From Euglena gracilis (Eukaryota): 64,000 nucleotides of DNA. The notes under the pieces are model-generated. The model searched no databases. It saw only the letters and a program-made list of their open reading frames with translations, and was not told where the DNA came from. Made by a program: the position numbers and the translations under genes. The DNA is taken from NCBI GenBank assembly GCA_039621445.1, contig CP154954.1, forward strand, positions 33,887,737 through 33,951,736. Direction: 5' to 3'. Below, one piece after another: positions 1-18,494 of the stretch. Each line of letters begins with the position of its first letter. Position 1 is the stretch's first letter.

Positions 1-123
1 GCCCCATGGCTGACAAGGCTTTGAACACGGTTGCACAATCTTTCTTGGCTTTCAGCATCGAAATTTTTTGTCTGACTTCGTGTTCTCTTCTTTGGGTTTT
101 GTGCATCGCGAATTTGGCGAGTC

Positions 124-2592
124 TCATCCCAGGTTGAGGTAGGCATTGGCTCTCTCAGTAATTTTCCGTCCAACTGCAGCCCAATGGCTTTTCCCGCTCC
201 GCTTCAATGGAGCAAGCACAGCTTTTGGGAAGCACCAAAGTGCGTGTAGGGTCTCCCATCCTGGCTTTGACACAAAGCGACTGAGGGTGCTGCAGAAGGC
301 GAGCCCAACGTTTCGCAACGCTCCCCGTGGGATATGGACCAACGTGCCCCGAGTGTCTTGGGAAATTTCTTCCCAAGATGGCTGCATTGGTGGGCAAGGT
401 TGCGAGAAGGGAGTGACTTGCAGCGTATCAGCGTTCATCGAGGATTGCGCTGGTGCTGGAACCACGGGGGGCTGCGGCCTTCGACCATTTTGGCATTCTT
501 GCTCTTGCCCTTGTGGTGAGGACGGCACAAAATTCTCAATCAACCCCTGGCCCTGTGGCGCACACCCGTGAATTTCGGAAATCGCTGAGCGCACCCGGGA
601 CTCTAGTTCGTCAATGACCATGATTTGTTCAGCTGCAGGTGCCCCGGGGCCCCCGTTCAAACTGGGAAACGGCATTATAGCCTGGGACAAAGTAGGCGAG
701 AACAGCGGCGTTGAGTGCATTGGAAACCAAGATCCAAGGAGTGGTACCTCCGTCGGCGGCACAGCAGAGGTCTGTGCGGCTGAGGCCATTTCGACGTCCT
801 CCTGCTGGGGAGGGCGGGTTTCTGTGGGACCTGGGTTGCTTTCAATGTCGCCACAACTGGCAAGGCTTTTGCCCCTGCCACATCGGGGAGGACTGTACCC
901 ATACCGCGTTTTTTCCTGGTCAATCGGTTGCCGTACGTGGTTGGCGTGCCCAGGGGCCACATCTGACAACTTAGAAGGCCCTGGTTGGTTGGTTGGTCGT
1001 CGGCAATGGGGCCGGGTGCTAGGTCGCATGGATAGGGGTCCTTCACGAGGGGTTATCCGATAAATAGGTCCTGGCTCGAGGTGAACGTCACCACAAAGTG
1101 TGACATCTTGGTGTGTGGGCCTCTCGGCTATGACAGCGTTGTTACGGCCTATGTCACCTCGTTGGTGGTTTGGTCGTCTTTGTGCTGTCCGTCGTGCCCT
1201 CCGGATGTGACGGTCAACTGAAACTACTGATCTTGTCGGACGTAACAAGGCCATGATGTCCAGGATATCAACGGTGTGTACATTCAATGGGCAGAGGTCG
1301 GACGAGGAGGGCTCCGTTGGAGGTACTCTGGGGAAAGTGCCTCTCGGCCGGAGAACGTTGGGTAGTGTCATTAGGTGAATAGGGGGCAGGTAGAAGTGAA
1401 AGGCCTCGCCGATGTTGCATACTTCGGACCATAAACAGGTCAGCAACCACATAATGGCATGCACACTCGATGGGGAGTCGTGACGTGGTGGTCGATGTGG
1501 CCATAGCCCTATGAGCACAAACAGAACTCCTCTCAAAACTTCCCAACATTCGGTGAGCTCATAGACGGTAGCGTCCTCAACAAGGACATCGGAAGGGAAG
1601 GTGTCTCGGAAAGTTTGAAGTTCTGCATCCACCTCTTGAAGGCTCGCCAGCAGTCTGTGCCGAATGAAATTTTCTTGAAGTCCCCTGGAGATAGGGATTG
1701 TCGGTCTTTCCATGGTGGCCAGACGGAAGTAGATGGGCCCTGGTTGTGTTTGGACGTCACCATGGGTGGTGATTCGTTCCCCCCTTCCAGTCGGCTGGTG
1801 TCCTTCTGAAAACTTTTCCCGAGCTTGTTCTTGGGTGTATCCTCGGCTTGTTACGGAGTGTACTTTTGCTGTCTCAGTAGATGGATATACTGTGGCTGAA
1901 AAAACAGGGCAGGTTTCCCTGTGGTGCAGGCACCAACCTGCCGAGGCAGTGATGGTTTCAATGTCACACAAAGTGCATTTCAGCCAGTATGTAGCTTTGG
2001 GAAGAAGTGAACGGGAGGAGCCATCGGGGCCTTGCCGCAGTGGTATTTCAGCCTTGATCCGAAAGAAATCAGTCATGTTCATGGCAACAAGTTGGTCCAA
2101 TAGATCCATGACTTCACCACAGGGTCCATTAAATGCCGTCAGCGAGCCTGGATTGGTTTCCACATCACCCATTGTTGTCAGGGAATCACCTCGCCCCGTC
2201 TTCAGATATGCGTCTTCCGGCTTCTTCCCCCCGTGTGGGCATGCAGTGCAGAGGTGTATGGTGCCAACTGTTTCTGCCATGTGGAAATTTTTTGTGGCAG
2301 CACAAGAGTAATAGTCCGACAGGGAGTCATTTGAGTCATCAAGATCGCTGGTGGTCCACACAGACGGGGAAAGACGATCAGCCAATCCAACCTCACACGC
2401 AAACTGTAACGGTCTGGGCATGTCATCCATCAGCCAAATTCTTGGGCAGTATCGCCAGGCAATGGGCAGGGTTGGTTCTCGGGAGGGTGTCAGCCTCTTC
2501 TTTGTCCTCGGGGGGCGGACTGCTTCTGCTGCTGGCACTTTTTGTTTGATTTTTTGTGCGATAGCTCGGCGTACGTTTTTTATGTGCGACAT
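124..2592 (-). CDS. Copy A polyprotein segment with four 2A-like motifs, a CxxC...HH...C zinc-finger-like module and the pre-RT domain
   Basis: Motifs: MGDVETNPGS (2143-2172), HGDVQTQPGP (1735-1764), CGDVHLEPGP (1066-1095), CGDIESNPGP (826-855); LKCTLC...CLHHRETC. Apparent frameshift near 125, with the protein continuing off-window. Confidence 0.75.
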   Translation of the reverse strand: MSHIKNVRRAIAQKIKQKVPAAEAVRPPRTKKRLTPSREPTLPIAWRYCPRIWLMDDMPRPLQFACEVGLADRLSPSVWTTSDLDDSNDSLSDYYSCAATKNFHMAETVGTIHLCTACPHGGKKPEDAYLKTGRGDSLTTMGDVETNPGSLTAFNGPCGEVMDLLDQLVAMNMTDFFRIKAEIPLRQGPDGSSRSLLPKATYWLKCTLCDIETITASAGWCLHHRETCPVFSATVYPSTETAKVHSVTSRGYTQEQAREKFSEGHQPTGRGERITTHGDVQTQPGPIYFRLATMERPTIPISRGLQENFIRHRLLASLQEVDAELQTFRDTFPSDVLVEDATVYELTECWEVLRGVLFVLIGLWPHRPPRHDSPSSVHAIMWLLTCLWSEVCNIGEAFHFYLPPIHLMTLPNVLRPRGTFPRVPPTEPSSSDLCPLNVHTVDILDIMALLRPTRSVVSVDRHIRRARRTAQRRPNHQRGDIGRNNAVIAERPTHQDVTLCGDVHLEPGPIYRITPREGPLSMRPSTRPHCRRPTNQPGPSKLSDVAPGHANHVRQPIDQEKTRYGYSPPRCGRGKSLASCGDIESNPGPTETRPPQQEDVEMASAAQTSAVPPTEVPLLGSWFPMHSTPLFSPTLSQAIMPFPSLNGGPGAPAAEQIMVIDELESRVRSAISEIHGCAPQGQGLIENFVPSSPQGQEQECQNGRRPQPPVVPAPAQSSMNADTLQVTPFSQPCPPMQPSWEEISQDTRGTLVHIPRGALRNVGLAFCSTLSRFVSKPGWETLHALWCFPKAVLAPLKRSGKSHWAAVGRKITERANAYLNLG

Positions 2593-3406
2593 GTCCAGTC
2601 CCTCCTCACGTTGTTCCTCTGGTCGGTATTGATGAAGAATTTGGGTGATTCTGATCCGTTCCAGGGTGAGGTTCTTTTTTGGTGGGGGGGGGCGATTTCA
2701 CAACTTTTGGCGCTGCCAGTGGCAACGTGAGTTTCATGTCAGTGTGCACCATTTTTTGTGACTGCCGAATGTCCACTGTTCTGCCAATGTCGACCCACTT
2801 TTCCTGAATGTTTGCCAGTTTTCTGGCGACCTTCTCGTGAAATAAAATGCCTCCTGCTTGCTGTCTCATGCGCCTTCTCCAAAAAAATTCTTCCCTGAGG
2901 GACCGAAACTCTGGTGTTTCCCAAACTGGGACCCTTTCCAGGGGGGTGTTGGGTGGGGAGGCTGGTAAATCAGTTGCCTGGGGGGGGTCTTGCCATTGAA
3001 AGGGGCTGGGTTCCTCCTGCAGGATCACTGTGCCCAGTTTGGCCCACTGTGTGCCATCAAACATGGTGGGTTTTGTTGGAATTTTAAAAATGCGAAATGG
3101 TGGGCCTGGCCCCCCCCCCTCTTGCAGGGGGGGCTGATATTGGGGGGCTGGTGCTGAGATTTTTTGGGGTTGCATTTGGCTGGGGTTGATGATCCTCCTC
3201 TTTTGGGTGGGGGGGGGGGTGTTTTGCTGACTCCTTTTGATTTGGAGTTGCCTTGGGATGAAATTCTTGATCCACTTGTTTTACTGGGTGAAGGTATTGT
3301 GTTGAGTTGTCCCCTCTTTGGGGGGGACTTTGTGAAACAAAAGGGAAAGCTGCAGGCAGAAAACCATATTGGAAGGCTGATGGTGATGCCAGTACCACAT
3401 CTGGGA

Positions 3407-4195
3407 TTAAGGGTGCTGGCAGGCCAGGGTTGTGTAATGGTGTTGGGAGGGGGGGACTTGTGTACTCTGGCCTGTGCTGAGAAAGGCTCTGAGGCTTCTG
3501 AAGAGTTCAGCCTCTTTCCTTCTCTGCTCTTCTTCTCTGGTCCAATTCTTCCTCTGGTCATCTTCTCTGCTCCAGTTTGATTGCAGTGGTTGCTGAGATT
3601 GCAGGGGTTCACCCCAAAGGTTGCTCTGTGATGGAATGTACATTTGTATGATTGATGTGACAGATGGACATACTTGACTTCTACCCACTGGTGGGCATTG
3701 GAATGGGCTGTTCATTGGAATGCTCACTGATGGGCCTGACTGTGGAATGCCCACTGATGGGCTTGCTGTACAGGGGGGCCCCAGACTCACTTGCTGATGG
3801 AGCTGGGGCTGTGGAGAACTCTGTTGAGATATATGATAACTGGGTCGACCTCTCTGCCATGGGGGCTTGTAATCTCTTCCAAACCTTCTCTGTAGGTACT
3901 CTTCATGCTCTTCCCTCTCTTGCCATGTCCTCTTCCTTCTCTGTGAGCTGCTGTCTTGACTTTCTCTGTCACTATGTACAGGGCGGTCAGCAGTGAGTCG
4001 TTGGGCCACAGCAGTGGTTAGCACCGGCACCAACAGCGGCAACAACATCTTGGCCAGCAGCTCCAACTGTCCAGTGTCCACTGCAACAGTAGGTGTACTT
4101 GAAGGGTTGGTTGTGGTAGCAGCTTGGTTGACAAGGGGTGTATTGTCTTGAGTCTTGGGGTCTTCTGGAGGGCCATCCGGCCCCTTTGCAGCAAT
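3407..4195 (-). CDS. Copy A N-terminal gag/ORF1-like region (start codon apparently ATT; frameshifted downstream)
   Basis: Begins about 15 nt downstream of the SL. Shares PEDP and EEYLQRRFGRDYKP / EEFLKKKHQSRYIP with the N-terminus of copy C; Q/P-rich. Confidence 0.5.
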   Translation of the reverse strand: MAAKGPDGPPEDPKTQDNTPLVNQAATTTNPSSTPTVAVDTGQLELLAKMLLPLLVPVLTTAVAQRLTADRPVHSDRESQDSSSQRRKRTWQEREEHEEYLQRRFGRDYKPPWQRGRPSYHISQQSSPQPQLHQQVSLGPPCTASPSVGIPQSGPSVSIPMNSPFQCPPVGRSQVCPSVTSIIQMYIPSQSNLWGEPLQSQQPLQSNWSREDDQRKNWTREEEQRRKEAELFRSLRAFLSTGQSTQVPPSQHHYTTLACQHP

Positions 4196-4209
4196 GGTGA
4201 TTATGCAGA

Positions 4210-4242
4210 CGAAAAAAAATAGACACTCAGAATAGACACTCA
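4210..4242 (-). other. Retro-copied Euglena-type spliced-leader exon (23 nt) plus a partial tandem copy
   Basis: Minus strand reads TGAGTGTCTA-TTCTGAGTGTCTATTTTTTTTCG, matching the recalled E. gracilis SL ACTTTCTGAGTGTCTATTTTTTTTCG. Not followed by a GT donor. Confidence 0.85.
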
Positions 4243-4258
4243 AAATGCAACCTGCCGA

Positions 4259-4313
4259 ACGGTGGTGGGGCGAACCGAATCCACCGACCACTGGCACAGC
4301 CTACTGGATTTGA
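4259..4313 (-). repeat. Conserved ~55-nt retroelement 3'-terminal motif (other copies 10455-10509, 10749-10803, 10891-10945, 11751-11805; inverted at 18443-18494)
   Basis: + strand acggtggtggggcgaaccga(a/g)tccaccgacca(c/g)tggcacagcctactggatttga; six near-identical copies read directly. Confidence 0.9.
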
Positions 4314-4784
4314 AGAGTTCAGGGGAGTAAGGCTATGTACAGAGGCAACAGTCTGTGCACGCTGGTGAAGGGAGGGAAGGTAAAAGGGGCGAGCAAAGAG
4401 AACAGTATAAGGCGCGAGGTGAGGCCGCTGTTGATCAGCTTCCGGAGTTCTTCGTCCACGTGAGTCAGAGTGGTTGGGCAGGCAATGGGGAGGTGGCAGG
4501 GCTCGGTGCCGTTTAAGGTCTGGGTGTTGATGACGGGTGGGCCGGTGATTCCGGCTTCAGCTGTCTTTCACGCCCTGCGGCTCCTCGGGGGCGTCGTTGC
4601 AGCTCCGACGTGCTGCATTGGTTCTTGGTTGTTGCAGGGGGCATTCCTTATATATCATGGCATGGTCCCGATTCGCTGCCCCCTTGGCTGTGCGTGGCGG
4701 GCCGTTTCCGGGCCTCCGCTAGTTCAGGAAGCACCGCCGGAGGCGGAGGGGTTGCTTCGGGATAGTGGAGCCCGAAGGGGTAGC

Positions 4785-7700
4785 TCATGTGCTGTATGGG
4801 TGGTGAGTGTCCATGCCACCTCCTTCGTTGAGGTCGTCAGGGCATTGGCCCCACACGAGCTGTTTCGCCAGTTCTCTGGCAAGGGCCATGCTGAGGCCAT
4901 GCCAGCAGTTTGCCTCCGCTGCTCGCCTCTCCCATGCGTCATGTTGTCCCGCAAGCAAGTGAACACAGTTTCCAACAAAGGCAAGCGCTGCCTCCCCCAT
5001 TCCTCCGTAGCAATCGAGGACAAAGGGGATGAACGTCCACCCTCTGCGCTTACAACCGTCTCCATACTTTTTGATTTTGTCTTCCTCCTGGCTCTCATGC
5101 CATTTCCCAAGGTCTTCCAATCCTGGCCGTACGCGGGAAGGTGCAAGGGGGTGGCGAACGGTCACATCGATTGCCGCCGGACCGTTTGCATCATATCGCA
5201 TCACAAATACGTCGCCCGGGCGGGAACCATCAGGGGCACTCTCCTCTCTTCTGGCCGGGAAACCTGCCTTTTGGGCCAGCCCAAGGATGTAGGACTGCAC
5301 CGCCCCGTGTCGCCGAACAATGTTGTTCCGGTGGCAACAAACGAGGTGTGATGGCCTCTTGCGTCCAAGGGGTTGTGGCACCGAGGGCACCCGGGACAGG
5401 CATCTGAAGGCGAAACAACCGGAGCACCCAGGGACCATTGCATCAGGGCCTGGAATTCCCTTGTTGGTATGAGCGTCCTTGTGGCGGCTGACGGCGTAAC
5501 GGAGGCCCAAGCCATAGCATGTGGCTTCATCTGACATGCCATTTTCAGTTTATCGCTACCCGTGAGTGAGTTGTACAGAGCTTGCTGTCGGGCCTTTGCA
5601 CACTGTTGTCCCCAGAATTTCTGTGCCGTCATTTCTTGAGGCAGCATCTCCGGACTTTTTGGGTCCTCAACAAAGGCCTTTGCAATCGGTGGGAGCTCAC
5701 ATAGACCCTTGATGGCCTCCACCTGGGCGGTAAATTCCGAAGGTAGGGGGTTCATCCCACAGATGGGTGGCAAGTCGAGGACGCGGTCGCCGCGAACAAG
5801 AAAGTCAAGTGTGGCGGCCCACCTGGCGATCGGGCGCTCCGTGGTAGGGTCCCGGATGCCCAACCCACCCAACCGGACAGGCAAGGTGGCCTGGCGCCAC
5901 TGGTCCTCTTCCAGCGGCCGCCCGACAATGATGCTGGCGGTATTCCGCAGGGTTTTGCTCAGCAGCGTGCACTGCATGGTTGCAAGGCCAATTGGAGTAG
6001 TCCTCAACAGGTCGTTAACCTTGCACGCGTCCAGACACAGCCTTAGAATGGTGAACTGGATGTGCGCAGAAGGCACCTTCTGCAAGGCTGAACACGCCTT
6101 CATAGCTTCTTCGCACCGCCCAAACCACACACGTTCGGCAAATGTCCCGTCCTCCGGATGGCAAATTGGAACCCCGAGGGACTTGATTCCGGAACCAGGA
6201 ATGTATGGAGTTACGGGGATGCGTTGCAATACACTTGTCCCCTCCAGGAAGAGAAAACGGTCGGGTTGGAAGGCTGGCCCCCAAAGGGTGCATTTGTTGA
6301 TATTCAGGTCAACACCAATGGGTGGTCCCTTTTCAAGGACCAAATGTACAACCTCCTCCAGCTGGCGTGTAGTCCCCATGATGTGGGCATCGTCCAGGTA
6401 CCAGGCCTGCCGTCCGCAAACGCCATGGATTTCCTCCACCAGACTCTGAATTGCCATGGCAAAGGCAGCCGGTCCACAAGGATCGCCTTGCTGAACCCCC
6501 GACTGGCTTCGGAGGGATGTGTCGCTCAAGAAGAGGCTCGAGTGTTCTGCATAACAGGTCTCCAGCCACGTCACCATTTCTGGACATCGTTCTCGTGCTG
6601 CTTCGAGAAGGTTATCCCTCCGGATCCGGTTGAATGCGTTCCTGAAGTCCAATTGCAAGACTCCCCAGTCACGAGAGCCTCCATGATGGAGGCTGGTCAC
6701 GAGGTGTTGGAGGCCCATGCCGATCAGGCCACAGGCGTCAGGACAACCCACCCCAAACTGCCCGGGCATCCCATCTTGGGTAAACTTTCGCACGGCAGGT
6801 TGGCGCATCAGCACCTTGCCCACCAGTCGGCGCAAGCATTCTCCGGAAGCAATGGGCCGAGTCCCTTCTTGTGCGGGATCCTGCCCATTGGGTGTGAGGT
6901 TCCCAGCGTCATCCACTGTCGTGGCCGGTTTGACCTTTCGCAGCGCCGTGAGGCGTGCCGATGTGAGGATTTCAGCCACACCGGCGGGCCATCCCGTGTT
7001 GATGCAGCAGAAGACGAAGGTCGTGAGGCCCTCAAGCAGTGTCTCGGCCTGTCCCCCAGCTTCCCTGCTAAGCATGTCCTTAATGTGGTCCGGCTTTAGG
7101 CCCGATGGCCCTGCTGCCGATTCTTTTCCGAAACTGAACACTGCTTTGCGGACCATGGAAAGCCTGTCCCTCCTCTCGTTCTCGTCTCCAGGTGGCGGAA
7201 AAACAGAACCCGTTTATCCGTGGGGCCCCGGCCAGGTGGTTCCTCAGCCGGGTGAAGATCGTTCAACCGTTGGCGCACAACGGGGTGTTTGTCATCTTGC
7301 ACGCCGTCCGAAGTCAGGACCTGGCATGCCTTGCCAACGGCACCCTTGCTCACCAAACGTTCAAGGCGGCGTACGAATGCTTCTTCTTGCACTTCTTGCT
7401 CACGTCGGGCTTGGCCCCTGGTGCGAACAGGTTGACCCATTTGGGGTAAGCGGGCAGAGTCCTTCCAACTGTCTGCCACCGTTCGTTTTAGATAAGCTTC
7501 CGCTCTGCCGCGGATGACCCTTCCCAACCGGGCCCAATGGCCGCGTCCACCCTTTCCCAAAGGTGCCAACACAGCCTTGGGGAAAGCCCACAGGCCATGT
7601 AATGTTTCCCAGGTGGGCCTCTCGTTGAACGCCCGGAGAAGGCAGGAGTACACGTCACAGACCGCGGGAAGGGCTCCCTTTGGTATGGTGGAAACAGTGC

Positions 7701-8108
7701 CCCTTGGATCCGAGGATATTTCCATCCACGACGGGGAGAGATCCGGGCACGGGGATTGAAGGGCAGTGCCAGTTTTCATGCCGGGTAGATATTGAACCCC
7801 CATTTCAACGTCGTCCACCCCATCCAACGCACTGGGTCCTCTTGTGGGCCCTTGGCTGTTTGTTGCGGGGAGGGTGGCCTCCAGCGGTGGCCGGCTGATG
7901 AGCCGTTGCAGCAGGTCTTGAAGCTCCCTGGCATCTTGTGAGGAAGGGGATACTTGCGGCGGGGGCTGCAACGGAGGCATGGTTGTCGCCATGAGGAAGC
8001 CAATTGTACGCTCTGCGTTTTGTTCAAAGTCAAACAGCATTGGCACCAAGGTGTTGTTCGCTTCAGGGAAGGTTGGTCCGGGCCTGGGTTTGATTCGACA
8101 TCCCCTGA
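4785..8108 (-). pseudogene. Copy B 2A-RT-CCHC-RLE coding region, broken into four ORF pieces by three frameshifts
   Basis: SLLTSGDVESNPGP; SAAGPSGLKPDH; RPIASGECLRRLVGK; LDFRNAFN; GVQQGDPCGP; WYLDD (6389-6400); LPVRLGGLG; CPRC...H...C; RPGD...IDVTV...KIKKY; FIPFVLDCYGG. Frameshifts near 8070, 7200 and 5340. Confidence 0.88.
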
Positions 8109-8691
8109 TGTCAGCAGGCTGTCCCCTCTGCCGGTCCGAGGGTGAGCGGAGGCATGGAGCTTGCGGGGAAGGCCGTTCCGCTTCCCAAAAGGTCCAAGGA
8201 TTTGACAAATGCCCGTTCTGCCGGCTCCACCACGTCCATCCGAGAGGATAATTGAACTCAGCGACCTCAAAAACCCTGTGCCTGGCCGCTTTGCGTGGCT
8301 TGGAGAATCCGCCAATGCCCATTCTCCGCAGGGGTCGAGGAGCTTGAGGCTTCGCTCTCTACCAGGACGGTCTTGACGAATGCCGGCTCTGGCGGCTCCA
8401 CCACGTCGGTGTGAGCGGATATTCGGACTCGGCGACCTCAAAAACCCCCCTGAGGGGACTCTGAGTGGGCTGTTCCGGGTGATTTTTGCGAAGAAATTGT
8501 AATGGCTGGTGCCCGGCGGAAATGGTTCCCGTACTCCCCGGTACGGGAAAATTCCGCATGGCCGTTTCCGGCCTCTCGCCGCATTTCGGCGGGACGAGGA
8601 CCGCTTTTTCGGGTCCGCCACCCTCGAAAACCCCCCTTGTGGGCATCTGAGCGGGCTCCGCCGGGTCGTCATTATGAAGCAACTGTGATGG

Positions 8692-9526
8692 TGTATACGT
8701 TGGTCGTCACCACCCGCCGTTGGACGGCCACGGGGCAGCTCATACTGCTTGCCGTGGCACGCCCTCAGGCGGGGAACTACACCCAAGGTCCGGCCAACCA
8801 GTGTCTCGTCCTTGGGCGCAGTTGCACGCGCCGGTCGATCCCCGCGGTATGCCCTCTGCCCGTACGGGATCGACCAGGACTCACACGGCGGGACCTGGGT
8901 CTCGAACCCACGACCTCCCGCGTGTGAGCCCAGCACCTTACCGAATAAGCTACTCGAGCGATACTCGGCTTGGTACTACGCGCCGGCTACCAACCTCCGT
9001 AGGATCTCCCGTCTGCCGCACACACTCCCCTCCCAAGAGCCTTACTACACTAGCCCACTGCGTCACTATGGCCGTGGCCCCTGCAGCTCGGGTTATGCCT
9101 CACACGGCCCTAGTTGGCTGAGTGCCTCTCACGAGTACTGCGTCACCAGGCTGCCGACCCCTGCAGCTCGGGTTTGCTATTGCCGGCAGTTTACGTGTTG
9201 TCGACTTCCACGGGCTCTGCCGCCTTGGAGCGTCCCCCTTAGCATCGGCTTGAGACTTTGGAACGGTGTAGGAGTTTCAGTCGCCCTAGACTCGGCACGT
9301 CCGCCTCCGCCTTCCGGGCGCCGTGGGGTCAGGCTCTGACTTCCCGGTTCGTGTGGCATTAGACGGGTTCCTCTGCTACCATGTATACGTTGGTCGTCAC
9401 CACCCGCCGTTGGACGGCCACGGGGCAGCTCATACTGCTTGCCGTGGCACGCCCTCAGGCGGGGAACTACACCCAAGGTCCGGCCAACCAGTGTCTCGTC
9501 CTTGGGCGCAGTTGCACGCGCCGGTC
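8692..9526. mobile_element. Small TRIM-like insertion with ~148-bp identical direct terminal repeats and a probable 5-bp target-site duplication (TSD)
   Basis: 8692-8839 is identical to 9382-9529. GATGG at 8687-8691 and 9527-9531. Removing the insert restores ctgtgatggccg..., as in the sister repeat near 9886. Confidence 0.7.
8890..8959 (-). pseudogene. tRNA-derived sequence (Val-CAC-like pseudo-tRNA or SINE head)
   Basis: GCTCGAGTAGCTTATTCGGTAAGGTGCTGGGCTCACACGCGGGAGGTCGTGGGTTCGAGACCCA: A-box-like TAGCTTATTCGG, CTCACAC anticodon loop, B-box GGTTCGAGACC. Acceptor and anticodon stems pair poorly. Confidence 0.55.
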
Positions 9527-10454
9527 GATGGCCGCTGCCGGAGGGCAGTGGTTCCCGTGTGCCACCAGGACGCTCTTGACGAATGCGGGCTCTGGCGGCT
9601 CCACCACGTCGATTTGAGCAGATATTCGGACTCGGCGACCTCAAAAACCCCCCTGAGGGGCCTCTCAGTGGGGTCTGCCGGGTCATTTTGGCGAAGAACT
9701 TGTAATGGCTGGCGCCGTGCGGCTGTGGTTCATGTGCTCCACGGGACGAGAAAATTCGGCATGGCCGTTTCTGGCCTCCCGCCGCATTTCGGCGGGACGA
9801 GGACCGCTTTTTCGGGTCCGCCGCCCTCGAAAACCCCCCTTGTGGACATCTGAGCGGGCTCCACCGGGTCTTCTGAATGAAGCAACTGTGATGGCCGATA
9901 CCGGAGGGCAGTAGTTCCCGTGTACAACGGACTCCAACAAAGTACTCAACAAGGGTCGAAACCTCCAAAGAGCATTTTGAGTGCAACAGCAATTTTTGCA
10001 GTCTTTTCGCAAGTGGATATGGCGGACTTCTGATCATAATGGCGGGCCCTTCGCCCAACACCCTTCCGACCGGGGGGGAATGACATGGCACTAATCCGGG
10101 AATCGTCGTGGGAGTCTTTGGGGCAAAAAGTCCACATGTTATGTTTTGTTCGCTTCTCATGCCTTCGGTGATGATGATGATGTCGATGGCTGGTCCGGGG
10201 CTGACCTCCCGGGCTGCTGCTCCAGGGCTGATCTCCTGGGCTCGTTGGGGGTTGGGGGGCTCACCCCTTTGGTTGGCATGCTGGGGGTTGCAAGGCTTGT
10301 TCTCTTGCCCCCGGTGCCATCGAACGCTGCGGGGCTGTGTCTCCCGCTGCTCTGGAGCTGTGGGGCTTGGCATCCCACAGGAATCAAGCTGGTTTGTCAA
10401 GTAGAGAACTGGTCACGATCAACAGTTGCAAAGCACGGTCCGAGATGGATGTAT

Positions 10455-10724
10455 ACGGTGGTGGGGCGAACCGAGTCCACCGACCAGTGGCACAGCCTAC
10501 TGGATTTGAGTGTTCGGGGGAGAGGGAAGCTATGTACAGATGGGGAAACCCCCATGGATAGTCAGAGGTTAATCAGGAGACAGTTGCAAAGGAGTGGAAG
10601 TAGTCGATGACTTCAGAAAGCAATATCTTGAAACTTCAGATACCCAAGGTAAATAATAATGCTTGACCCCGACCCCGGGGCTTTCAAGACAAGTTATGCA
10701 GAAGACGAAAAAAATAGACACTCA
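10455..10724 (-). mobile_element. Short non-autonomous derivative: SL + ~125 nt + 3' end of copy-D type
   Basis: SL remnant at 10706-10724 (TGAGTGTCTATTTTTTTCG). 10455-10580 is nearly identical to 10891-11016. Confidence 0.7.
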
Positions 10725-10748
10725 AAATCCAGTGCAAGCAACAACAAA

Positions 10749-10890
10749 ACGGTGGTGGGGCGAACCGAATCCACCGACCAGTGGCACAGCCTACTGGATT
10801 TGAAGAGTTCAGGGGAGTAAGGCTATGTACAGAGGCAACGGTGTGTGTTCTAGATAGCCTAGTAGCGTCCCCTGTCGTTGAATTAAATAT
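10749..10890 (-). mobile_element. Severely 5'-truncated 3' end of copy-B type
   Basis: 10749-10839 matches 4259-4349 (gaagagttcaggggagtaaggctatgtacagaggcaac). Confidence 0.7.
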
Positions 10891-11739
10891 ACGGTGGTGG
10901 GGCGAACCGAGTCCACCGACCAGTGGCACAGCCTACTGGATTTGAGTGTTCGGGAGAGGGAAGCTATGTACAGATGGGGAAACCCCCATGGATAGTCAGA
11001 GGTTAATCAGGAGACACCGGGGCTTTAGTAGCCCGTGGGAAATGGGGTGGATGGGAGACCATGTCGATGATCGAAGAGAGAGTCGAGGATCAGGTGGCGT
11101 CGTTGGGGTGCGCGCGGGGTGCAGTCTTTGGCAGCGGGGCGGGGAGGAGCGGCCATGGTGCATGCTCGGGTGCGGCCTTTGCTGCCGCAGCCCTGATGCT
11201 CTTGACGAGCTGTCGTGCATCGTGACCCATCTGGTGATTGATCGACGCGGCTGAGTGGTTTTAGCGTAGGAGGTGCTTTGGGCGCAGCATTTGCACAATC
11301 TGCCGGAAGAGGGCAAGCGCCAGAAGCTGGTAGCTTTCAGCCTGCCGCGTAGAACGGACATCTCCATGGTCCCACGAGGTTGTGCGTTTGATTATTCTGG
11401 TCAGCAGCTTCGCGCTTTCTGGTCCAAGGCCGCCCCACGTGCCCATTGCCAAGGTGGCGAAAGACCATCCTCCGTTTCGGCAGGGAGTGTCATACTTGGT
11501 GTGCTTGGCAGCCTCCTTCCTTTTCAGGAAGGTCCTCCAGCGCTCCCGCGTTGCCAGCCTTTCGGCGGCCTGCCAGCCATGAGCGACTGTGATGTCGACT
11601 GCCGTGGGCTTACCGTCCTGCCAGGTAGCCAAAAGCAAGTCAGCCGGCCTGAGCGAGCTGTCGGGTTGGTTAGGCACCAGACCTCGCGTTGCACGCTTTG
11701 ACCGTTCGTTGACAAGATGTTGAAGAGGGCGTCTTGAAC
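10891..11739 (-). mobile_element. CRE copy D, 3' part (RLE domain + 3' UTR)
   Basis: VQDALFNILS...VQREV, then after a frameshift LRPADLLLATWQDGKPTAVDITV...KEAAKHTKY...GTWGGLG, stop at 11261; close paralog of the C-terminus of copy C. Confidence 0.85.
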
Positions 11740-12067
11740 CATAGTGGAATACGGTGGTGGGGCGAACCGAATCCACCGACCAGTGGCGCAGCCTACTGGG
11801 TTTGAAGGTCCGGAGGAGGTTAAAAGTATATACAGGTGGTGCAGGGCAGGGCAGAAGGAAAACGGGCAAGGCCCATCTTCAATATAAGGCGCAGAGGGAC
11901 GGCTGGAGTGGTTGACGGCTGGGGTGGCTGACGGTAGGGGTGAGGCGGCCTGCTTGGCGCGGGCGGGAGGGCGGGCGGATGGTTGTGGTGTTTTGGTGTG
12001 CGTGTGTGCGTGTGTGGGTGTGGGTGTGTGTGCGTGTGTGGGTGTGGGTGTGTGGTTGTGTTGTGTG

Positions 12068-12098
<31 letters not shown>

Positions 12099-12114
12099 TT
12101 ATTTTCTTCCGTGG

Positions 12115-15100
12115 TTAACGGAGGACGTGCTTGGGTTGTAAGAGGTGGAACACTTCTCGGAGCAAGGCGATGGCCACATTTTGGTAGATTTCCGCTTGCT
12201 TGGTTTCGCGCTCAGCGCCCTGTTGCCAGGACGATGCGCGTTTGGCCACTCTGCTCAGTGTCTTGGCCGTTTCCGGTCCCATGCCACCCCATGTCCCGAG
12301 GGCGAAAGGTGTGAAGCACCACCCTGCTTGCTGACATGGCACGTTGTATTTCTGCTTTTTGGCGTCCTCCCTCCTCTTCAGGAAGGATCTCCAGCGTTCG
12401 CGGGTCGCTGTGTGTTCTGCCGCTTGCCAGCCGTGGCAGACGGTAACGTCCAGCGCCGTCGGCTTCCCCTCGGACCAGCAGTCCAGCAGGAGGTCCGCCG
12501 GGCGTAGGTGACTGTCTCGGGCCGTTGGCAGGGAAACTTCCTTCTGCACCCGGTGACCGCTGTTGGACAAGGTTTGAAACAGAGCGTCCTGAACAGCGTT
12601 GTGCCGGGCTGAGAAGTTGTTCCTGCGGCAGCAAAGCAGGTGGTCGCCTTCCTGGTCCAGAGGCTGGCCGCACCCTGTGCACGGCTGGCTGACGTCCTCC
12701 AGCACCGGCAGCCCTAACCACCACTTCAGTCCCAAGGTGTACTCCTCGCTAGAGAAGGTGGTGTGGGAGTTGTTGGAAGGGGTGGCCGCCATCCACCCGT
12801 GTCCGAACCCCGTGGCTTGTTCAAGGAGGCGGTTCTGGTCGCGGGGCCGGGCCTGGTCCACAAGGCCATCCATCGCCTTTTTGCCCAGCTCGTGGTTCCA
12901 CCACTTTTGCCTCCGGGGTTCTTGGTCCGCGGAGGCGAGTCGTCGTGGGTTGTGGAGGAAGGTGGTGACCGTGGCATGGTTGGCTCCTAGCCTGCCCCGG
13001 AGGTCGTCCAGGACGGGCGCGACCAGGGGTAGCTGCAGGCCGGATGCGTAGTCGGGCACACCCACGCGCCTGGCCCCGTCTGAGTAGAAGTCTGCAAGGC
13101 AGGAGATCCTGGCTGCGGGCTGAGTGCAGGACGGGACGCGGAGGCCGCAGCCCCCGCTGGATAGGGGCAGCGACGCTTGTGTCCGCTGTTGTGGGTTCAG
13201 TGCCGTGCCCAGTATGTCCTCGAAGGCGTTCATGATGACCTCCGAGCAGCCTGTAACCTGATCTTGGCTGCCATACGAGTCGGACGCGCGTAGGAGGTGG
13301 TTCACTTTGCAGCCGTCAAGACAGCTCCGCAGAAGGTGATGTGCCACCTGGGCGTCGGTGAGGGACGTTATGGTAGATGAGGCCTTCTCGATCTTAGCGG
13401 CAGCATCCGCCCACGCTTTCTTGGTGGTGTCGGAGGACGCGGGGTGGTCTACTGGGATACCGAGCACGGTATGCCTTCCCCTGGTGACCAAGGGACCACT
13501 TGCAATCTGTCGCAACTGGGTGCACTCCGCGCTCCCGGGCCCCACAAGACGCACTTCTGCAGGTTGAGGCCAAGGCCAATGCGGTGGGACTCTTGCAGCA
13601 GGAAACGGAGGCAGTGTTCAATCCTGTCGGGGGTTCCGACCAGGAGGCCGTCGTCCAGGTACCAGCTGTTCCATAGCAGCTGGCCGTCCCTGGTTATCTG
13701 GTCCAGCAGCGGCTGCAGCGCCAGGGCGAACCCGATGGGGCCCAGAGGGCAGCCCTGGTGTGTGCCCCTCTGGGAAAGGATGGTGCGGCCCCCGCAGAAG
13801 AGGGGGACGGGCCCGCTGTATGCAAACCTCAGGAAATTGAACAGACTGGGTGTACGGGTCTCGGCCTCTGTAAGGTCGCCCCTCGGTCAACTGTGTTGAA
13901 AGCATTGGAGTAGTCCACCTGGAGGGAAACCCAGGGTGAGGTGTCCCCCAGCTGAAGCACGAGGTGCTGCATGCCCAGGGCAACAGCCTCGGCGGCGTTC
14001 CGTACCCCCACCCCGACCTGGGTGGGGGCGAGCGTTGCAACCTCCGACCGGGCATGTGGTGTCTGGAGCAGCGTTTTCCCTACCAGGCGGCGGATGGTCT
14101 CCCCAACCGCCACTGGCCGCACCCCGTTGTCCTTCTTGCGGAGTGGGGTCAGATTCGCGCAGCACCAGGCCGCGGCGTGGTGCGGTGGTAGCTGGCCGTC
14201 AATCCAGAACTGGGTCAGCCGCGCAAGGGCTGTGATCAGCTTGGCTCCCCGGCCCGGCCTACGAAGGCAGTCTTGGAGGTGGCTGGGCCGCAGGCCCGAC
14301 GGGCCTGCGGCGGAACCCCGTGGGAAACGGCGGATGGCCTCCTTCAGTCTGTCCTCCCATTCCGGGATGTGGTTCTCAGGGAAGGGCTTAACCTGTCGCG
14401 GGAGGCGGTTGGTGTCCACCGGTCTGCCGCTTGGGTGCAACTTCTCCAGGGCAGCCCAGACATCCGGATCATCCGGTTGGTGCGCGCCCTCAGAGAGCAG
14501 TAGCTGGACTGCCTTCGCGGACGCCCCTTCTGCGGTGAGGGTGCGCACCCGTCTCGTTATGGCCTCACTGAGGGCGGTCGGCTGCGTTCTTGAGCGTTTT
14601 TCCGCCCTGGTTTCCACGACGGAGTGTCGAGCCTGTGCGTCCTTTAGTGCCTCTGTCAGAAGGGTGCCGTAGTCCCCCTCGCGGAACAGTTTGGTACGCC
14701 GCAGCAGGATGGACTCCAGCTCCGCTGCCGGCGGCGGTTTGGTAGTCGACACCGGTCGGAGGACGAGTTTCGGGAAGGATAGGACGCTGAATAGAGCAGC
14801 GTCCGAGGGTGCGTGCGTGTATGCGTTGATGGCATCTGCCAAAGTGTCAAAGACAGGTTGCTGGCAGGCCGAGGGCAGGTGAATAAGGGTGGAGATTCTT
14901 TGTTGGAGGACGTGGGTGATGTCGCATGGGGGAGTGCCCACGACAAGGTTGTGTGTGGGCCGTCCCCGGAGGTTGGACTCCTGCCCCGCGCTGTCGATAA
15001 CTACCGCGGCGTCAAGTTCCGGGTGGGCCAGGTCCAGAAAGAGGTGGTCGTGGTTCCGGGCATTCGCAGCAGCCGGTGCGCCATGAGGTGGCCCGGAGGC

Positions 15101-18100
15101 CGGGCGCTTGGCTGGCCCAGGGTTCTCCTCCACGTCTCCACAGGTGAGGAGGCTACCCCGTCCGCGGGTTGCCCCCCGTATGCAAGGACTTCCCCGCGGC
15201 GGACAACGATGGCCGTTTTTTGGCAGTGAGTCGGCTACCGCTGCCGGATCCATGGGGGCCCGTGGCTCGTGGAGGAGGGAGTGGGGGGTGGGGGTCAGCC
15301 GAAAAGCCGGGCGTAAGAGCGGTGGGCTAGGGGCGGCAAACTGAAGAGGGAGCAGCGTGGGGCAGTCCCAAGGCCATTGCCACAGTCCGCAGCGAGGGCA
15401 CCAGCAGGGGGTCTGACCGCGGATGTCCCACAAGGCGTTCCGGTGGAATAGGAATGTCCGGCCTGCATAGTCCCCTAGGTGGAAGACTTCGCCGCCATGA
15501 GTGGAGCGGCGTTCTATGATAAGGCGTTGTTGGCCAAGGGAGAGGAGCGGCGCAAGGGGGTAAGGGGAGTGCGCGCGGCGCGAGAGCTGCCGTCCGTGGT
15601 CAGCGCCCCGGTGGGGACCCGGTGGGGGCCGGGCGCCGCATGGGCTGCCGCTGCCGGTGTGGCATATCCGTAGGGCTGTGGTCGACCACGTGGGGGCCGG
15701 CAGCAGCGCTGTCCCCCGGGCCCGGTAGATGGGGCATCGCGGTAAGGTCACGGAATGCAAGGAGAGGCGCCGCAGGCCGGCCAGCGCGGTGGACCACTCC
15801 GGTGCGAGGAGGATGATGTTGCCCCCATATCGAAGGACGTGTTCCAAAACACGGGGGAGCAGGGAGAAGGGTGGGTTGCACCACAGCGGGTTTGGCAAGT
15901 TCCAATTCTGGAGGAAAGCATCCTCCCTTGATGACCAGAAGGCGTCCAGTTGGGTGTTATTTTGGTCGGCGAAAGCGTCGATGGTGGGCGGGTCATGGGG
16001 GGACAGAGCCCGCACCACCGCCTGGAACCACTCGGTGTCCAGCATGAAGTCTTCGCGTGGTGCGAGGGGGGGGAGAACGGAGGAAGCCCGGCCGGAGGTC
16101 GTGGGGCCGGGGTTGCTCTCCACATCTCCCGCAGTGAGGATGTCTGCGCCCCTGCCGCTCCGAGCCCGCGGGGGAACCCCCAGGGGGCGGCAGCCGGCGG
16201 CCTGCCGGCGAAGTGTGGAGGTGAGGACCCGCCCATGCGGGGCTCCCTGTGAGTCACTGAGGGAAGCAGCTACGTGGGGTGGGGGTGAGGCCCCGGGGGG
16301 TGCCGGAGTCGCGCTGCTGGGCCCAAGAGCCGGCGCTCCCCGTCTGGGACGCGTGGAGTCATCGTCGTCGGCATCGTCATCCTCCGGGTCGCTATCGACG
16401 TCAGAGAGAGACGGTGGTTGGCAGATCTGCATGTGGGCGACTATGGGCGCTGGGTACGGGGTCGCAGTCGACCATCCGCACATTTGGCAGTGTACCAGCC
16501 ACCACTCGCCGTTTGGGAGGGACTCCAAGTGCTGTAGCCTCCAGCGCCACGAGTCTTCTCTTATGGAGGGGAGAGAGAAAATGTTGCCCATGGGCCTACC
16601 CGCCTGGCAGTGATGGGACTGCATGCCTTGGAGGGAGGACAGGTTGACGTGCTGAGAGCACAAGAGGCATCTCGCATATTCGGACCCTGCCGACGCGAGG
16701 TCTTCTGCCGTCCCCGACGACGAGGGGCCGGCGGTTACCGGGGTGAGCAGACGTAGCCACCGCCAGTGTTGGCCAGTCCAGTAGATCTCCTCCCAGACGT
16801 CGTCGGGCGCCAGGGGGGGGGATGGGCTCGCCGGTCCCCCCGGGCGAGGCCCCGGGTTCTCCTCGATATCGCCGCAGCAGAGGATATCCCTGTGGCAGAG
16901 CTGCCTCGAGAGGCCGGGGCGACTGTGACCGTCGGCGTGATGCCACCCCATTGTATGCCCGTGGTGCCGGCCCCCCCGAGGGGCGGTAGCCGGCCGCCCC
17001 CCCCCCCTCTTGGGGCTGCACGCAGGGGGGATACAGGAGCAGCTGGACGTCGTCGTCCGCTAGGTCAGACCAGGTGCGACCGGGGGGGTGGGGGGGCAGG
17101 GGGGAAGCGGTGATATGAATTCCCTCCAGCCAGTGGTCCACGAGGACTTTTTTGTATTTTTTCCTGGACCCGGTCCATTCCCCCCAGATGGAGGCGTCCG
17201 TCGAAGACAGCACAGACCAATCGTCTGCTGCTGAAATCGAGTTTGTCGGCAGGTTGGCCGGGGCACTGGAACTGGCTGCTAAGGTGTGCTCCTTTTTTTG
17301 TGCAGCCCTTTTTTGGTCCACCAGGTCGGTGACCATTTTCTTTTCCTCAGTGGACCTTGTCCTGAGTTTTTCCAAAATCCTCTGGATTTGGGGTGTTGTG
17401 GTGCATTTTTTGGGGGGGGGCCTTGGCCCAGTCCTGGGTGTGACTTCAAAAACTTCTGCCCCCCCCCCCTCTTCCACTCCCCCCCCCCTTCGATTTGGCA
17501 GGGCACAAATGAAGGAGATGGTGGGAGGAAGGGTCCAGAGGGTCCAGCTGCCATTAAGAGCGGGGCATCGGTAGCAATGGACATGTGGCTGCCATTTGAA
17601 TTTAAATTTAAATTTGGAACATTTCCAAGCAGCATCCACATGATTTGTAGCAGCAGCTGTCGCAGCACGTCGGTGGGGAGCTGCAGCCCTTGGTTGGCTG
17701 TTGCACAGGCTGTCATGGTGGGGGTGTTCCCCACAGGGCCCCCCAGGAGGCTGCCCATCTGGGCCCCCATTTGGCTGCCCATTTGCCCCATTTGGGGCTG
17801 CAGCTGTTGCTGCTGTTGCTGCTGTGGCTGCTGTTGTTGCTGGGCAGTCCTTCCAGGCTTCCCCTGGGGATTTAAAGGTGTGTGGTGTGTGTGGTGTGTG
17901 TGTGTGTGTTGTAGCCAGGGGGGAGGTAAGGGCTGCTCAGGCTGGTGTCGGAGGTGGCGGGGGATGTAGCGGCTCTGGTGTTTTTTTTTGAGGAACTCCT
18001 CGTAGGCTTCGTCTTCTTGTCGCCTCCTTTTTCCCGGTCGTCCTTCCTCCACCTTGTCGGCCAGCTCTTCCACTTTGCTTGCTAATACCACCATATTCTG

Positions 18101-18214
18101 AGCCACCAGGCTCACTTGCTCCAGCACCGAATTCAATTTTTTGTTGAGGATGACGTTGTCCAGCGGCACTTCCAGCACGGCTGGCGGGTCTTCTGGGGCC
18201 GCGGCCCCCGACAT
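12115..18214 (-). CDS. Copy C polyprotein (gag-like / 2A / Zn fingers / 2A / methyltransferase / 2A / RT-CCHC-RLE), frameshifted in this assembly
   Basis: ORFs 17279..18214, 16596..17639, 13829..16951 and 12115..13554 overlap or abut. RT motifs SGLRPSHL, RPVAVGETIRRLVGK, VDYSNAFN, GTHQGCPLGP, WYLDDG (13650-13661); CTGC...DHLLCC; RPAD...LDVTV...KKQKY. Confidence 0.8.
15660..16060 (-). CDS. Dam-like/DIRS1-like amino (N6A/N4C) methyltransferase domain within the copy C ORF
   Basis: DFMLDTEWF...IDAFADQNN...FWS..EDAFLQNW...LWCNPPFSLLPRVL...LLAPEW...PAPTW; NPPF at 15866-15877. Confidence 0.8.
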
Positions 18215-18232
18215 GGCGGTTTATGCGGAAAT

Positions 18233-18258
18233 CGAAAAAAAATGGACACTCAGAAAGT
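18233..18258 (-). other. Full 26-nt spliced-leader copy (1 mismatch) at the 5' end of copy C
   Basis: ACTTTCTGAGTGTCCATTTTTTTTCG followed by ATTTCCGCATAAACCGCC-ATG. Confidence 0.9.
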
Positions 18259-18265
18259 TGTGACA

Positions 18266-18494
18266 CTTGAACGGCGTTGTGACGGTTCGCGAAGTTGTTA
18301 CGGATGTAGCAAAGATCGTGGTCTCCATGAACATCCACCGGGGCCTGACAGCCAGCACAGATAGTCGGTGTGACCGCTAGTGGCAAACCCAGCCACCATT
18401 TCAGTCCCAGCCGGTAGTCCGCCGGGTCGATGACGGTGTGTATCAAAATCCAGTAGGCTGTGCCACTGGTCGGTGGATTCGGTTCGCCCCACCA
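18266..18494 (-). mobile_element. CRE copy D, upstream part (zinc knuckle), capped by an inverted 3' motif
   Basis: YRLGLKWWLGLP...CAGC...GDHDLC...NNFANRHNAVQ joins VQDALF at 11739; inverted motif at 18443-18494. Confidence 0.8.

Follow-up and report, generated by a model that had tools for sequence, protein, structure and literature searches.

Putative 2A-divided polyproteins with exchangeable cargo, including a Dam-like methyltransferase, in R2-like retrotransposons

Introduction

The 64-kb stretch of the Euglena gracilis genome analyzed here (contig CP154954.1 of assembly GCA_039621445.1, positions 33,887,737 to 33,951,736; "the window" in what follows, with coordinates counted from its first letter) carries a cluster of retrotransposons in whose long open reading frames (ORFs) 2A-like peptide motifs recur. 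An initial annotation, made from the letters alone, had read these motifs as sites that divide retrotransposon polyproteins into units, as in viruses. The locus thus raises the question of what kind of elements these are, what the units between the motifs encode, and whether the motifs serve to separate them. We consider it probable that the locus holds polyproteins of R2-like retrotransposons divided by 2A, whose upstream cargo is exchangeable and includes a Dam-like methyltransferase. This reading is carried by the motifs and their frame, the element borders and a target duplication, an R2-type domain set, a methyltransferase fold with NPPF, and the presence of the same layout in independent sequences; for these elements, we infer skipping and methylase activity.

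Results

Eight 2A-like sites on one strand

A six-frame scan of the window returned eight 2A-like motifs, every one on the minus strand and each at the place given in the initial annotation. They are named after the element copies (A, B and C) that carry them:

16861-16847, minus strand: site C-1, CCGDIEENPGP, strict class-A motif
16114-16103, minus strand: site C-2, TAGDVESNPGP, strict class-A motif
15127-15113, minus strand: site C-3, TCGDVEENPGP, strict class-A motif
8079..8132, minus strand: site B-1, GRGDSLLTSGDVESNPGP, core TSGDVESNPGP at 8090-8079, strict, frame 2
2143..2196, minus strand: site A-1, GRGDSLTTMGDVETNPGS, core GDVETNPGS at 2154-2143, degenerate (P to S)
1735..1788, minus strand: site A-2, GRGERITTHGDVQTQPGP, core GDVQTQPGP at 1746-1735, degenerate (E to Q and N to Q)
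1066..1119, minus strand: site A-3, PTHQDVTLCGDVHLEPGP, core GDVHLEPGP at 1077-1066, degenerate
826..879, minus strand: site A-4, GRGKSLASCGDIESNPGP, core CGDIESNPGP at 837-826, canonical, adjoining the N-terminal part of the reverse transcriptase (RT) unit

Five of the eight (C-1, C-2, C-3, B-1 and A-4) satisfy the strict pattern D[VI]ExNPGP, which A-1, A-2 and A-3 fail. When the whole window was shuffled 200 times with dinucleotides preserved, the mean count was 0.0 for the strict pattern (5 observed) and 0.03 for the loose pattern GD[VI]xxxPG[PS] (8 observed). Two further NPGP matches, at 63970 on the plus strand and 55215 on the minus strand, come without the GD[VI]E part and are chance occurrences. 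GRG, noted earlier ahead of several motifs, stands upstream of 6/8. The window sites fit the consensus drawn from 81 sites of related proteins, about 18-22 residues long and with a leucine-rich stretch (leucine at -12 in 54 and at -11 in 46) upstream of GD(V/I)E (G at -8 in 70, D at -7 in 71, V or I at -6 in 74, E at -5 in 70). To judge from these sequences, the general form of the site is TGRGxxLL(T/S)CGD(V/I)ExNPG-P, where the hyphen marks the bond concerned, a class-A 2A (StopGo) peptide.

In copies C and A the sites lie in frame within a long ORF, between protein units. When the eight sites were compared pairwise, positions with the same residue shared a codon in 0/7 to 6/11 cases per pair. 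These differing synonymous codons at conserved residues indicate that the sites are old and have been kept as peptide rather than as DNA, and they rule out that the DNA coding for 2A was recently duplicated or converted.

Element borders

The elements and their ends are as follows:

11740..18265, minus strand: copy C, full-length element of 6526 bp, inside the endonuclease coding region of element D
18266..18272, minus strand: 5' target-site duplication GTTCAAG, 7 bp (junction comparison and X1 joint)
11733..11739, minus strand: 3' target-site duplication GTTCAAG, 7 bp (junction comparison and X1 joint)
10890..11739, minus strand: element D, 3' part, with the end of the restriction-like endonuclease (RLE) domain and the 3' untranslated region (UTR); the upstream part lies at 18266-18443 and beyond
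4262..10740, minus strand: copy B, about 6.5 kb, ends approximate, from the shared 5' and 3' motifs
1..4250, minus strand: copy A, cut by the window edge, with 5' motif, ORF1-like region and polyprotein frame
18236-18252, 10708-10724 and 4213-4229, minus strand: 5' motif TGAGTGTCYATTTTTTT, opening C, B and A

The reading frame of element D breaks at 18266 and picks up again at 11739. Assembled contigs of an independent DNA run, X1, were compared with the window, and two of them (depth 178) run straight from 11732 to 18266, omitting 6533 bases; 7 letters at the joint are shared. Together, the 7-bp duplication and this empty-site joint identify copy C as a separate insertion of 6526 bp that lacks terminal repeats and is flanked by a short target-site duplication.

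Read along the minus strand, D, which encloses C, is followed by a short fragment and then by B and A, head to tail. The 5' terminal motif TGAGTGTCYATTTTTTT has three minus-strand occurrences versus 0.04 expected; it sits approximately 20-50 nt ahead of the ORF1 start and, in two cases, approximately 10-25 nt past the 3' end of the preceding element, and this closeness indicates a head-to-tail arrangement of the elements. Five element ends have in common a conserved 3' terminal motif of approximately 75 nt, ending ...CCCCACCACCGT (at 4345-4262 in copy B), which may be the recognition site of the RT on the RNA. Two hairpins are predicted in it, and compensatory change in 0/16 pairs speaks neither for nor against structure. 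The motif (...TCAAATCCAGTAGGCTGTGCCACTGGTCGGTGGATTCGGTTCGCCCCACCACCGT) is found at 10440-11030, 4190-4370 and 11740-11860 on the minus strand, in elements whose proteins are only about 30% identical.

A fragment of 158-161 bp that holds only the 3' terminal motif lies inside the 5' region of copy B, at 10421-10586. Contigs of X1 and of a further run, X16, skip 158 or 161 bases there at depths of 35-82, which suggests a strongly 5'-truncated insertion carried by only some of the copies. Runs X15 and X16 are taken for RNA by guess only, and X20 is an RNA library that may contain DNA; their contigs are read here as presence, not as evidence of transcription, ends or levels.

Coding units of copy C

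Copy C, the most complete of the elements, is laid out as follows:

17279..18214, minus strand: ORF1 of 311 aa, starting at the ATG at 18214; N-terminus coiled-coil-like, middle rich in Q
16850..16951, minus strand: ORF2 leader, 34 aa from the first ATG (16951), ending in site C-1 (LCHRDILCCGDIEENPG followed by P)
16106..16849, minus strand: segment 1, 248 aa, with two C-x2-C...H-x3-C zinc motifs, ending in site C-2 (GRGADILTAGDVESNPG followed by P)
15116..16105, minus strand: segment 2, 330 aa, Dam-like, with NPPF, a second small domain and a disordered tail, ending in site C-3 (GRGSLLTCGDVEENPG followed by P)
12115..15115, minus strand: RT-RLE unit, with N-terminal region, RT, CCHC and restriction-like endonuclease, stop at 12115
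11740..12114, minus strand: 3' UTR, with an A-run, a (CA)n stretch and then the terminal motif of about 75 nt ending ...CCCCACCACCGT

ORF2 is thus ordered as leader, 2A, CCHC zinc protein, 2A, Dam-like methyltransferase, 2A and RT-RLE. Segment 1 is homologous to segment 1 of copy A and to that of P0121, an environmental relative described below; its second half matches the P0121 zinc segment with an E value of 1.8e-8. As to ORF1, a protein-like frame goes on in another frame from approximately 17455. No family was found for it, with nothing significant in Pfam and no usable atlas match. The ORF1 N-termini of C and A are weakly alike (E 0.003); the idea, formed by eye, that segment 0 of copy A corresponds to the C-terminal half of the copy C ORF1 was unsupported (best E 5.7).

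Scanned alone, the Dam-like segment matches Pfam PF05869 with 29.0 bits (cut-off 28.1). Its AlphaFold2 model has a predicted local distance difference test (pLDDT) score above 90 for residues 20-150, and the best structural match is PCIF1, a cap-specific adenosine methyltransferase (Foldseek E 2.5e-4; Z 9.9, root-mean-square deviation (rmsd) 3.0, 128 residues aligned). Comparison with E. coli Dam gave Z 7.8, rmsd 3.3 and 111 aligned residues, with T4 Dam Z 7.8, rmsd 3.1 and 107 aligned residues, and with rRNA adenine methyltransferases Z values of approximately 8. The predicted structure has a class-I methyltransferase fold with NPPF. The final 75 residues, leading into the 2A site, are predicted to be disordered. 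We note a second small, beta-rich domain at residues ~190-250 (15116-15530; pLDDT ~72-82), with a C-x2-C...W-x-W-x-C-P pattern that is conserved in P0121.

Element class

Pfam recognizes RVT_1 in copy B (E 5.9e-14), and a direct phmmer search of P0121 against PDB sequences gave 0 matches at E <= 1. A family profile built from 33 relatives was searched against solved protein structures and matched the R2 proteins 9nl3_A (E 7.3e-39) and 9dou_A (1.2e-38), the match spanning RT, CCHC and restriction-like endonuclease through to the end; L1 (LINE-1) ORF2p matched in its RT part only (E ~1e-12). The alignment to 9nl3_A passes through C-x2-C, RHN, (K/R)PD, D-V-T-V and K..KY, which we take to be the CCHC and endonuclease motifs, in columns that are nearly invariant across the family. 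No apurinic/apyrimidinic endonuclease (APE; Exo_endo_phos) domain was found at Pfam E <= 0.1 in the B and C frames, P0121, P0029, P0081 and P0002. Since the profile matches R2 across RT, CCHC and RLE and no APE was found, the elements are assigned to the RLE-type non-LTR (long terminal repeat) class; by this sequence evidence they are R2-like RLE-type non-LTR retrotransposons, and not of the APE type where 2A is documented. The precedent invoked in the initial annotation, trypanosome L1Tc, holds in that 2A occurs there in a non-LTR element, but L1Tc is of the APE type whereas the window elements are of the RLE type; the 2A of L1Tc/Ingi was reportedly described by Heras in 2006. Pfam detected neither a tyrosine recombinase nor RNase H in the scanned frames, which, together with the target duplication and the R2-type endonuclease, sets the elements apart from DIRS.

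The three elements had been taken for copies of one retrotransposon. The RT regions of B and C share only 29-36% protein identity, and A and B 54% over the comparable 94 aa; at the protein level A, B and C are different subfamilies rather than copies of one element. The only clean insertion site seen is that of copy C, and neither ribosomal DNA nor another fixed target was seen; the head-to-tail and nested placement hints at a target preference, without defining one.

Relatives and conservation of the layout

The layout of copy C recurs in P0121, an uninterrupted 1736-aa ORF on a 5.8-kb public contig, which has three canonical 2A sites and the order zinc segment, Dam-like segment, RT-RLE. The two are 37-39% identical (37% in the Dam segment, E 1e-65), and in the tree the P0121 RT unit is closest to copy B. 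The segments between motifs, described earlier as variable, do differ among the upstream parts, but the CCHC zinc segment is common to A, C and P0121. In P0029, P0032 and P0081 a single GRGxxLLSCGDVESNPGP site lies 70-85 residues from the start, ahead of the RT unit.

When the Dam segment was searched exhaustively, 629 proteins were returned at E <= 0.001, and motifs were counted in the best 150 of these. [ND]PP[FYW] is kept in 134 (NPPF in copy C and P0121) and NPGP is present in 54, with up to five in one 587-aa protein. Dam, 2A and RVT_1 occur together in P0124, P0134 and P0147, and P0252, a Ty3-like element, has Dam but lacks 2A. In-frame conservation across the family, on which the initial annotation had staked its reading, was thus found, both in the three sites of P0121, in the same order, and in the 54 Dam relatives; at the level of sequence, this layout supports the division of retrotransposon polyproteins into units by 2A.

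In an RT tree (FastTree, 60 rows; 8/66 candidates, shorter than 600 aa, were left out) all 2A rows fall in one 36-row clade with support 98, and the 24-row sister clade, which holds named animal proteins, has no 2A. Dam rows occur in at least three branches of the 2A clade, beside rows without visible Dam, which are possibly truncated ORFs.

Two features of the relatives' sites may be added. Paired canonical sites only 22-47 residues apart are seen in P0138, P0134, P0172 and P0155, and the peptides released between them would be very short. Next to Dam modules, some 2A sites carry a tryptophan approximately 16-18 residues before the final proline (e.g. SVWVPYLPADGDVESNPGP), namely in the following relatives of the Dam segment:

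P0136, P0139, P0184, P0209, P0213, P0244, P0266, P0270: 2A site with tryptophan

These sites resemble a class-B feature as set out in the available text of PMC12338488, but their core is the class-A GDVE.

Copies A and B and damage in the window copies

Copy A has an open 857-aa polyprotein frame (2697-124), within which two segments are bounded by 2A-like sites upstream of A-3:

1738..2145, minus strand: copy A segment 1, 136 aa, CCHC zinc, homologous to P0121 segment 1 (E 4.7e-9)
1069..1737, minus strand: copy A segment 2, 223 aa, cargo, no relatives found

No match was obtained for the 223-aa segment or for an 80-aa segment in Pfam, in the P0121 comparison or in the relatives search, and an atlas look-up of the 223-aa segment yielded nothing usable. 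The RT-containing unit that the initial annotation had placed in each copy is present in B and C; copy A has only 234 aa of its N-terminal part (828-127), and its RT domain is absent from the window.

The serine codon of site A-1 (NPGS) is a proline codon in all covering contigs (X1 203.8/203.8, X16 8.07/8.07), and site A-3 is degenerate in the X1 contig too (H to Q). The ORF1 region of copy A contains three frame changes. Within the copy A frame, 15/34 listed single-letter differences, the best-supported subset of the difference table, are synonymous. Because NPGS reads NPGP in other runs, ORF1 starts with ATT and the frame changes, copy A looks like a decaying element and its degenerate sites like losses; of the two roles proposed for them earlier, decay is favored and a tuning of stoichiometry is not.

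Copy B has one site left, and the 2.3 kb upstream of it are filled with repeats and the short inserted fragment. Its frame changes three times, near 8070, near 7195 and last at 5348. The X1 contigs have one letter more than the window at 13470 (depth 225.9 of 225.9) and two letters fewer at 5346 (96.9 of 100); both length differences coincide with frame changes and leave the frame continuous. Pieces 95-99% identical to A, B and C are found in contigs of a leaf-litter metatranscriptome, which places them in an RNA library with possible DNA carry-over.

Further length differences between the window and X1 (3448, 16970 and 16996), as well as the frame change at 17455, lie in long runs of G or C, typical places for assembly error or slippage, where error and real mutation look alike. 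The differences at 16970 and 16996 lie upstream of the first ATG of ORF2 and, on frame arithmetic, leave ORF1 unconnected to the 2A frame.

Other features of the window

The 5' region of copy B includes a very high-copy repeat at 8681-9535 (X1 depth 5079, versus approximately 50-130 for the rest of B); a 661-nt X20 contig matches it with 5 differing letters and with its parts in another order. Units of approximately 171 nt are repeated upstream of B-1 (8202-8447 and 9576-9650) and form an arginine-, glycine- and proline-rich pseudo-frame, reminiscent of the tandem monomers in the 5' regions of long interspersed nuclear elements (LINEs). The observed/expected CpG ratio is 0.51 in A, 0.77 in B, 0.73 in C and 0.64 in the rest of the window (19000-64000), a general depletion that is strongest in the decayed copy A. 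A large short-period tandem array occupies 31945-36500, with self-match shifts of approximately 78-125 bases and units that are 72-96% identical; its part at 35549-36503 is inverted relative to 31945-35200. tRNA and Rfam scans of the window found nothing.

Discussion

Proposed expression of the polyprotein

The region is best read as a head-to-tail, nested cluster of R2-like elements of approximately 6.5 kb, each with a 5' motif, a 3' motif, ORF1 and a long ORF2. By analogy with known 2A peptides, the ribosome would skip the Gly-Pro bond at each NPG-P, so that the upstream chain is released and translation continues. From a copy C message this would yield a leader peptide, a CCHC zinc protein, a free Dam-like protein and, last, the RT-endonuclease, which would carry out target-primed insertion. 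In viral 2A systems, upstream products are more abundant than downstream ones; a similar gradient may be expected here, upstream products being at least as abundant as downstream ones and the RT-endonuclease, made last, the scarcest. R2 itself is one protein with N-terminal zinc-finger and Myb DNA-binding domains, and nucleic-acid binding, which in R2 resides in that N-terminus, may here fall to the zinc segment. For the Dam-like protein, released free, the candidate substrates are DNA, an RNA-DNA hybrid or capped RNA, the last suggested by the PCIF1 match. The 2A sites would act as module borders, at which segments could come, go or be exchanged while the RT unit stays intact, and this would account for upstream segments that differ between subfamilies.

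Weighing the evidence

Several observations weigh against a division by 2A with a Dam-like cargo. Within the full 1076-aa frame the Dam match reaches 26.9 bits, below the Pfam cut-off of 28.1, and it spans 42 residues only (profile positions 30-71 of 169). A 2A site is visible in only 3/120 listed RT-unit relatives, many of which are short, truncated or start inside the unit. For the cargo of copy A (residues 1-625), a search of 7981 candidates 471-1500 aa long gave no relative at E <= 0.001, so that its sites are not comparable across a family. The window copies are themselves imperfect: copy A has three degenerate sites, an ATT start of ORF1 (ATG in C) and a stop at 124; in copy C the frame shifts twice in the RT unit (near 13870 and at 13470) and once in ORF1 (near 17455); and in copy B the 2A, in frame 2, and the RT unit, in frames 1, 0 and then 2, are out of frame with each other. 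The earlier statement that a canonical motif directly precedes the RT unit in each copy thus holds in frame only for copy C and the copy A fragment. Finally, in the available text of two 2026 preprints, related transposon DAMs raised no N6-methyladenine in E. coli (10.64898/2026.05.21.726589), and most retrotransposon 2A-like peptides tested lowered protein abundance rather than producing clean skipping (10.64898/2026.06.17.732966).

The latter result bears on the strongest rival, in which the 2A-like peptides are mainly translational attenuators that stall ribosomes or cut downstream yield and keep the RT-endonuclease low. Abundance was reduced for 59% of ORF2p-associated and 70% of ORF1p-associated 2A-like peptides tested, according to the accessible part of 10.64898/2026.06.17.732966, and sites only 22-47 residues apart (P0138, P0134 and P0172) would fit repeated attenuation as well as separation. 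However, the sites stand exactly at the borders of independently folding or conserved segments and match the class-A consensus, which is usually active. We regard attenuation as the main role as unlikely, while noting that attenuation and separation are not mutually exclusive.

Somewhat less likely still is that the sites are relics in dead elements, with ORF2 translated, if at all, as a fused or truncated protein. Frame changes or degenerate sites in all three window copies would be expected in that case. Yet the X1 lengths at 13470 and 5346 restore the frame, the NPGS site has a proline codon in other runs, copy A retains 857 open codons and P0121 is an intact 1736-aa relative; the 95-99% identical pieces in an RNA library point the same way, with the reservation of DNA carry-over.

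The initial annotation had linked the serial 2A sites, as a modular expression chassis, to a lineage with trans-splicing; on such a view they would be an adaptation to a host with trans-spliced mRNA 5' ends in which several proteins have to be made per capped message. Nothing from the window favors this link, which remains unsupported and which we hold to be improbable: a dinoflagellate spliced-leader motif had 0 matches in the window with up to 3 mismatches, which neither identifies nor excludes any host, and the Rfam scan of the window showed no spliced-leader RNA nor any other family. L1Tc and Ingi do carry 2A in trypanosomes, which trans-splice. Class-B 2A peptides are also reported from dinoflagellates in the available text of PMC12338488; against this, 2A-bearing non-LTR elements occur in many animals as well (Odon 2013, PMC3708506, as far as its accessible text goes).

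That the Dam-like and zinc segments are foreign, pieces of another transposon such as DIRS landed inside copy C, would suit a region where nested insertions are common and a domain typical of DIRS elements (available text of 10.64898/2026.05.21.726589), but this very improbable account is already contradicted by segments in frame with 2A sites on both sides, by the same order in the uninterrupted P0121, by Dam, 2A and RVT_1 together in P0124, P0134 and P0147, and by the lack of tyrosine recombinase and RNase H matches (Pfam) in the frames scanned.

Implications

If R2-like polyproteins are divided by 2A, as we favor, a broader reading can be put forward tentatively, with the odds somewhat against it: 2A peptides would be universal connectors that let a widespread R2-like clade collect and exchange small genes, each expressed free from one message. 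As part of that tentative proposal, such genes might be the zinc protein, the Dam/PCIF1-like adenine methyltransferase and many 40-250-aa proteins of unassigned kind. This would amount to a eukaryotic operon-like cassette system carried by a transposon, and a freed methyltransferase could mark element cDNA, cap-proximal adenosine in RNA or host chromatin, favoring expression.

Most 2A sites on record in cellular genes are single, N-terminal and of unclear use. In the present case they border recognizable units of a mobile element whose ends are defined, and many independent sequences repeat the layout, which makes function (separate release, product ratios and cargo exchange) directly testable. 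The findings would place 2A in the ancient RLE branch of non-LTR elements and would add a non-LTR carrier to the transposon Dam family, with a domain that would act free and not as part of Pol. Natural GRG-led peptides and chains of up to five sites may also interest users of 2A co-expression.

Comparison with known systems

The R2 and other RLE elements (9nl3, 9dou, 8gh6) have the same order of RT, linker, CCHC and PD-(D/E)xK-type endonuclease as the window elements, and the short target duplication and conserved 3' UTR end of copy C are further R2-type likenesses. In the window elements, unlike R2, zinc and methyltransferase-like proteins lie upstream as separate 2A-bounded units, and ORF1 is present.

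Use of 2A in non-LTR elements is established for the APE type, and the available text of PMC3708506 and PMC3894237 (Luke 2013) describes RLE clades as single-ORF and leaves them unlisted among 2A carriers. In that text, L1Tc/Ingi and further APE-type clades (Rex1, L2, Crack and CR1) have, as here, a class-A 2A in frame ahead of the RT protein, with mutated-motif copies alongside canonical ones. Their endonuclease is of the APE type and N-terminal, only one site is present, close to the ORF2 start, and ORF1 is usually missing, whereas the elements described here have a C-terminal R2-type endonuclease and up to three or four sites that bound whole extra proteins.

With respect to the cargo, the DAM-carrying DIRS and Ty3-like LTR elements of 10.64898/2026.05.21.726589 share the same short Dam domain with its Asn-Pro-Pro pocket. 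There, as far as the text at hand extends, DAM is part of the Pol polyprotein or a separate ORF, whereas here the carrier is R2-like and the domain 2A-bounded; non-LTR Dam carriers are not defined as a class in that text, although supplements or figures may list some. SymbioLINE-Dnmt of Symbiodiniaceae is likewise a non-LTR element with a DNA-methyltransferase-type gene upstream of the RT. Its enzyme, however, is a cytosine-5 methyltransferase in a separate ORF1 and the element is of the APE type, and the accessible text of PMC5890265 contains no mention of 2A or self-cleavage.

With respect to the connectors, the ORF2p-like proteins of 10.64898/2026.06.17.732966, among them examples from the Dualen/RandI clade of Haematococcus and a Symbiodinium necroappetens protein, place a 2A-like peptide between an N-terminal added domain and the RT, as here. 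The cargo described in the available text is deubiquitinase (Josephin, OTU) and pentatricopeptide repeats, with no Dam-like or CCHC cargo or chains of 3-5 sites. Picornavirus polyproteins have several StopGo sites in series (PMC11512398, accessible text), as here, but in RNA virus genomes rather than in a cellular retrotransposon, and the available text of PMC12338488 (2025) reports eukaryotic genes with up to three 2A instances as well as class-B peptides in dinoflagellates.

In the available texts on 2A in non-LTR and RLE elements and on retrotransposon adenine methyltransferases, whose supplements may hold cases, neither 2A in R2-like elements nor 2A-bounded Dam cargo was found. No new principle is involved: the known use of 2A in non-LTR elements is extended to an element class and a cargo that had not been described together before.

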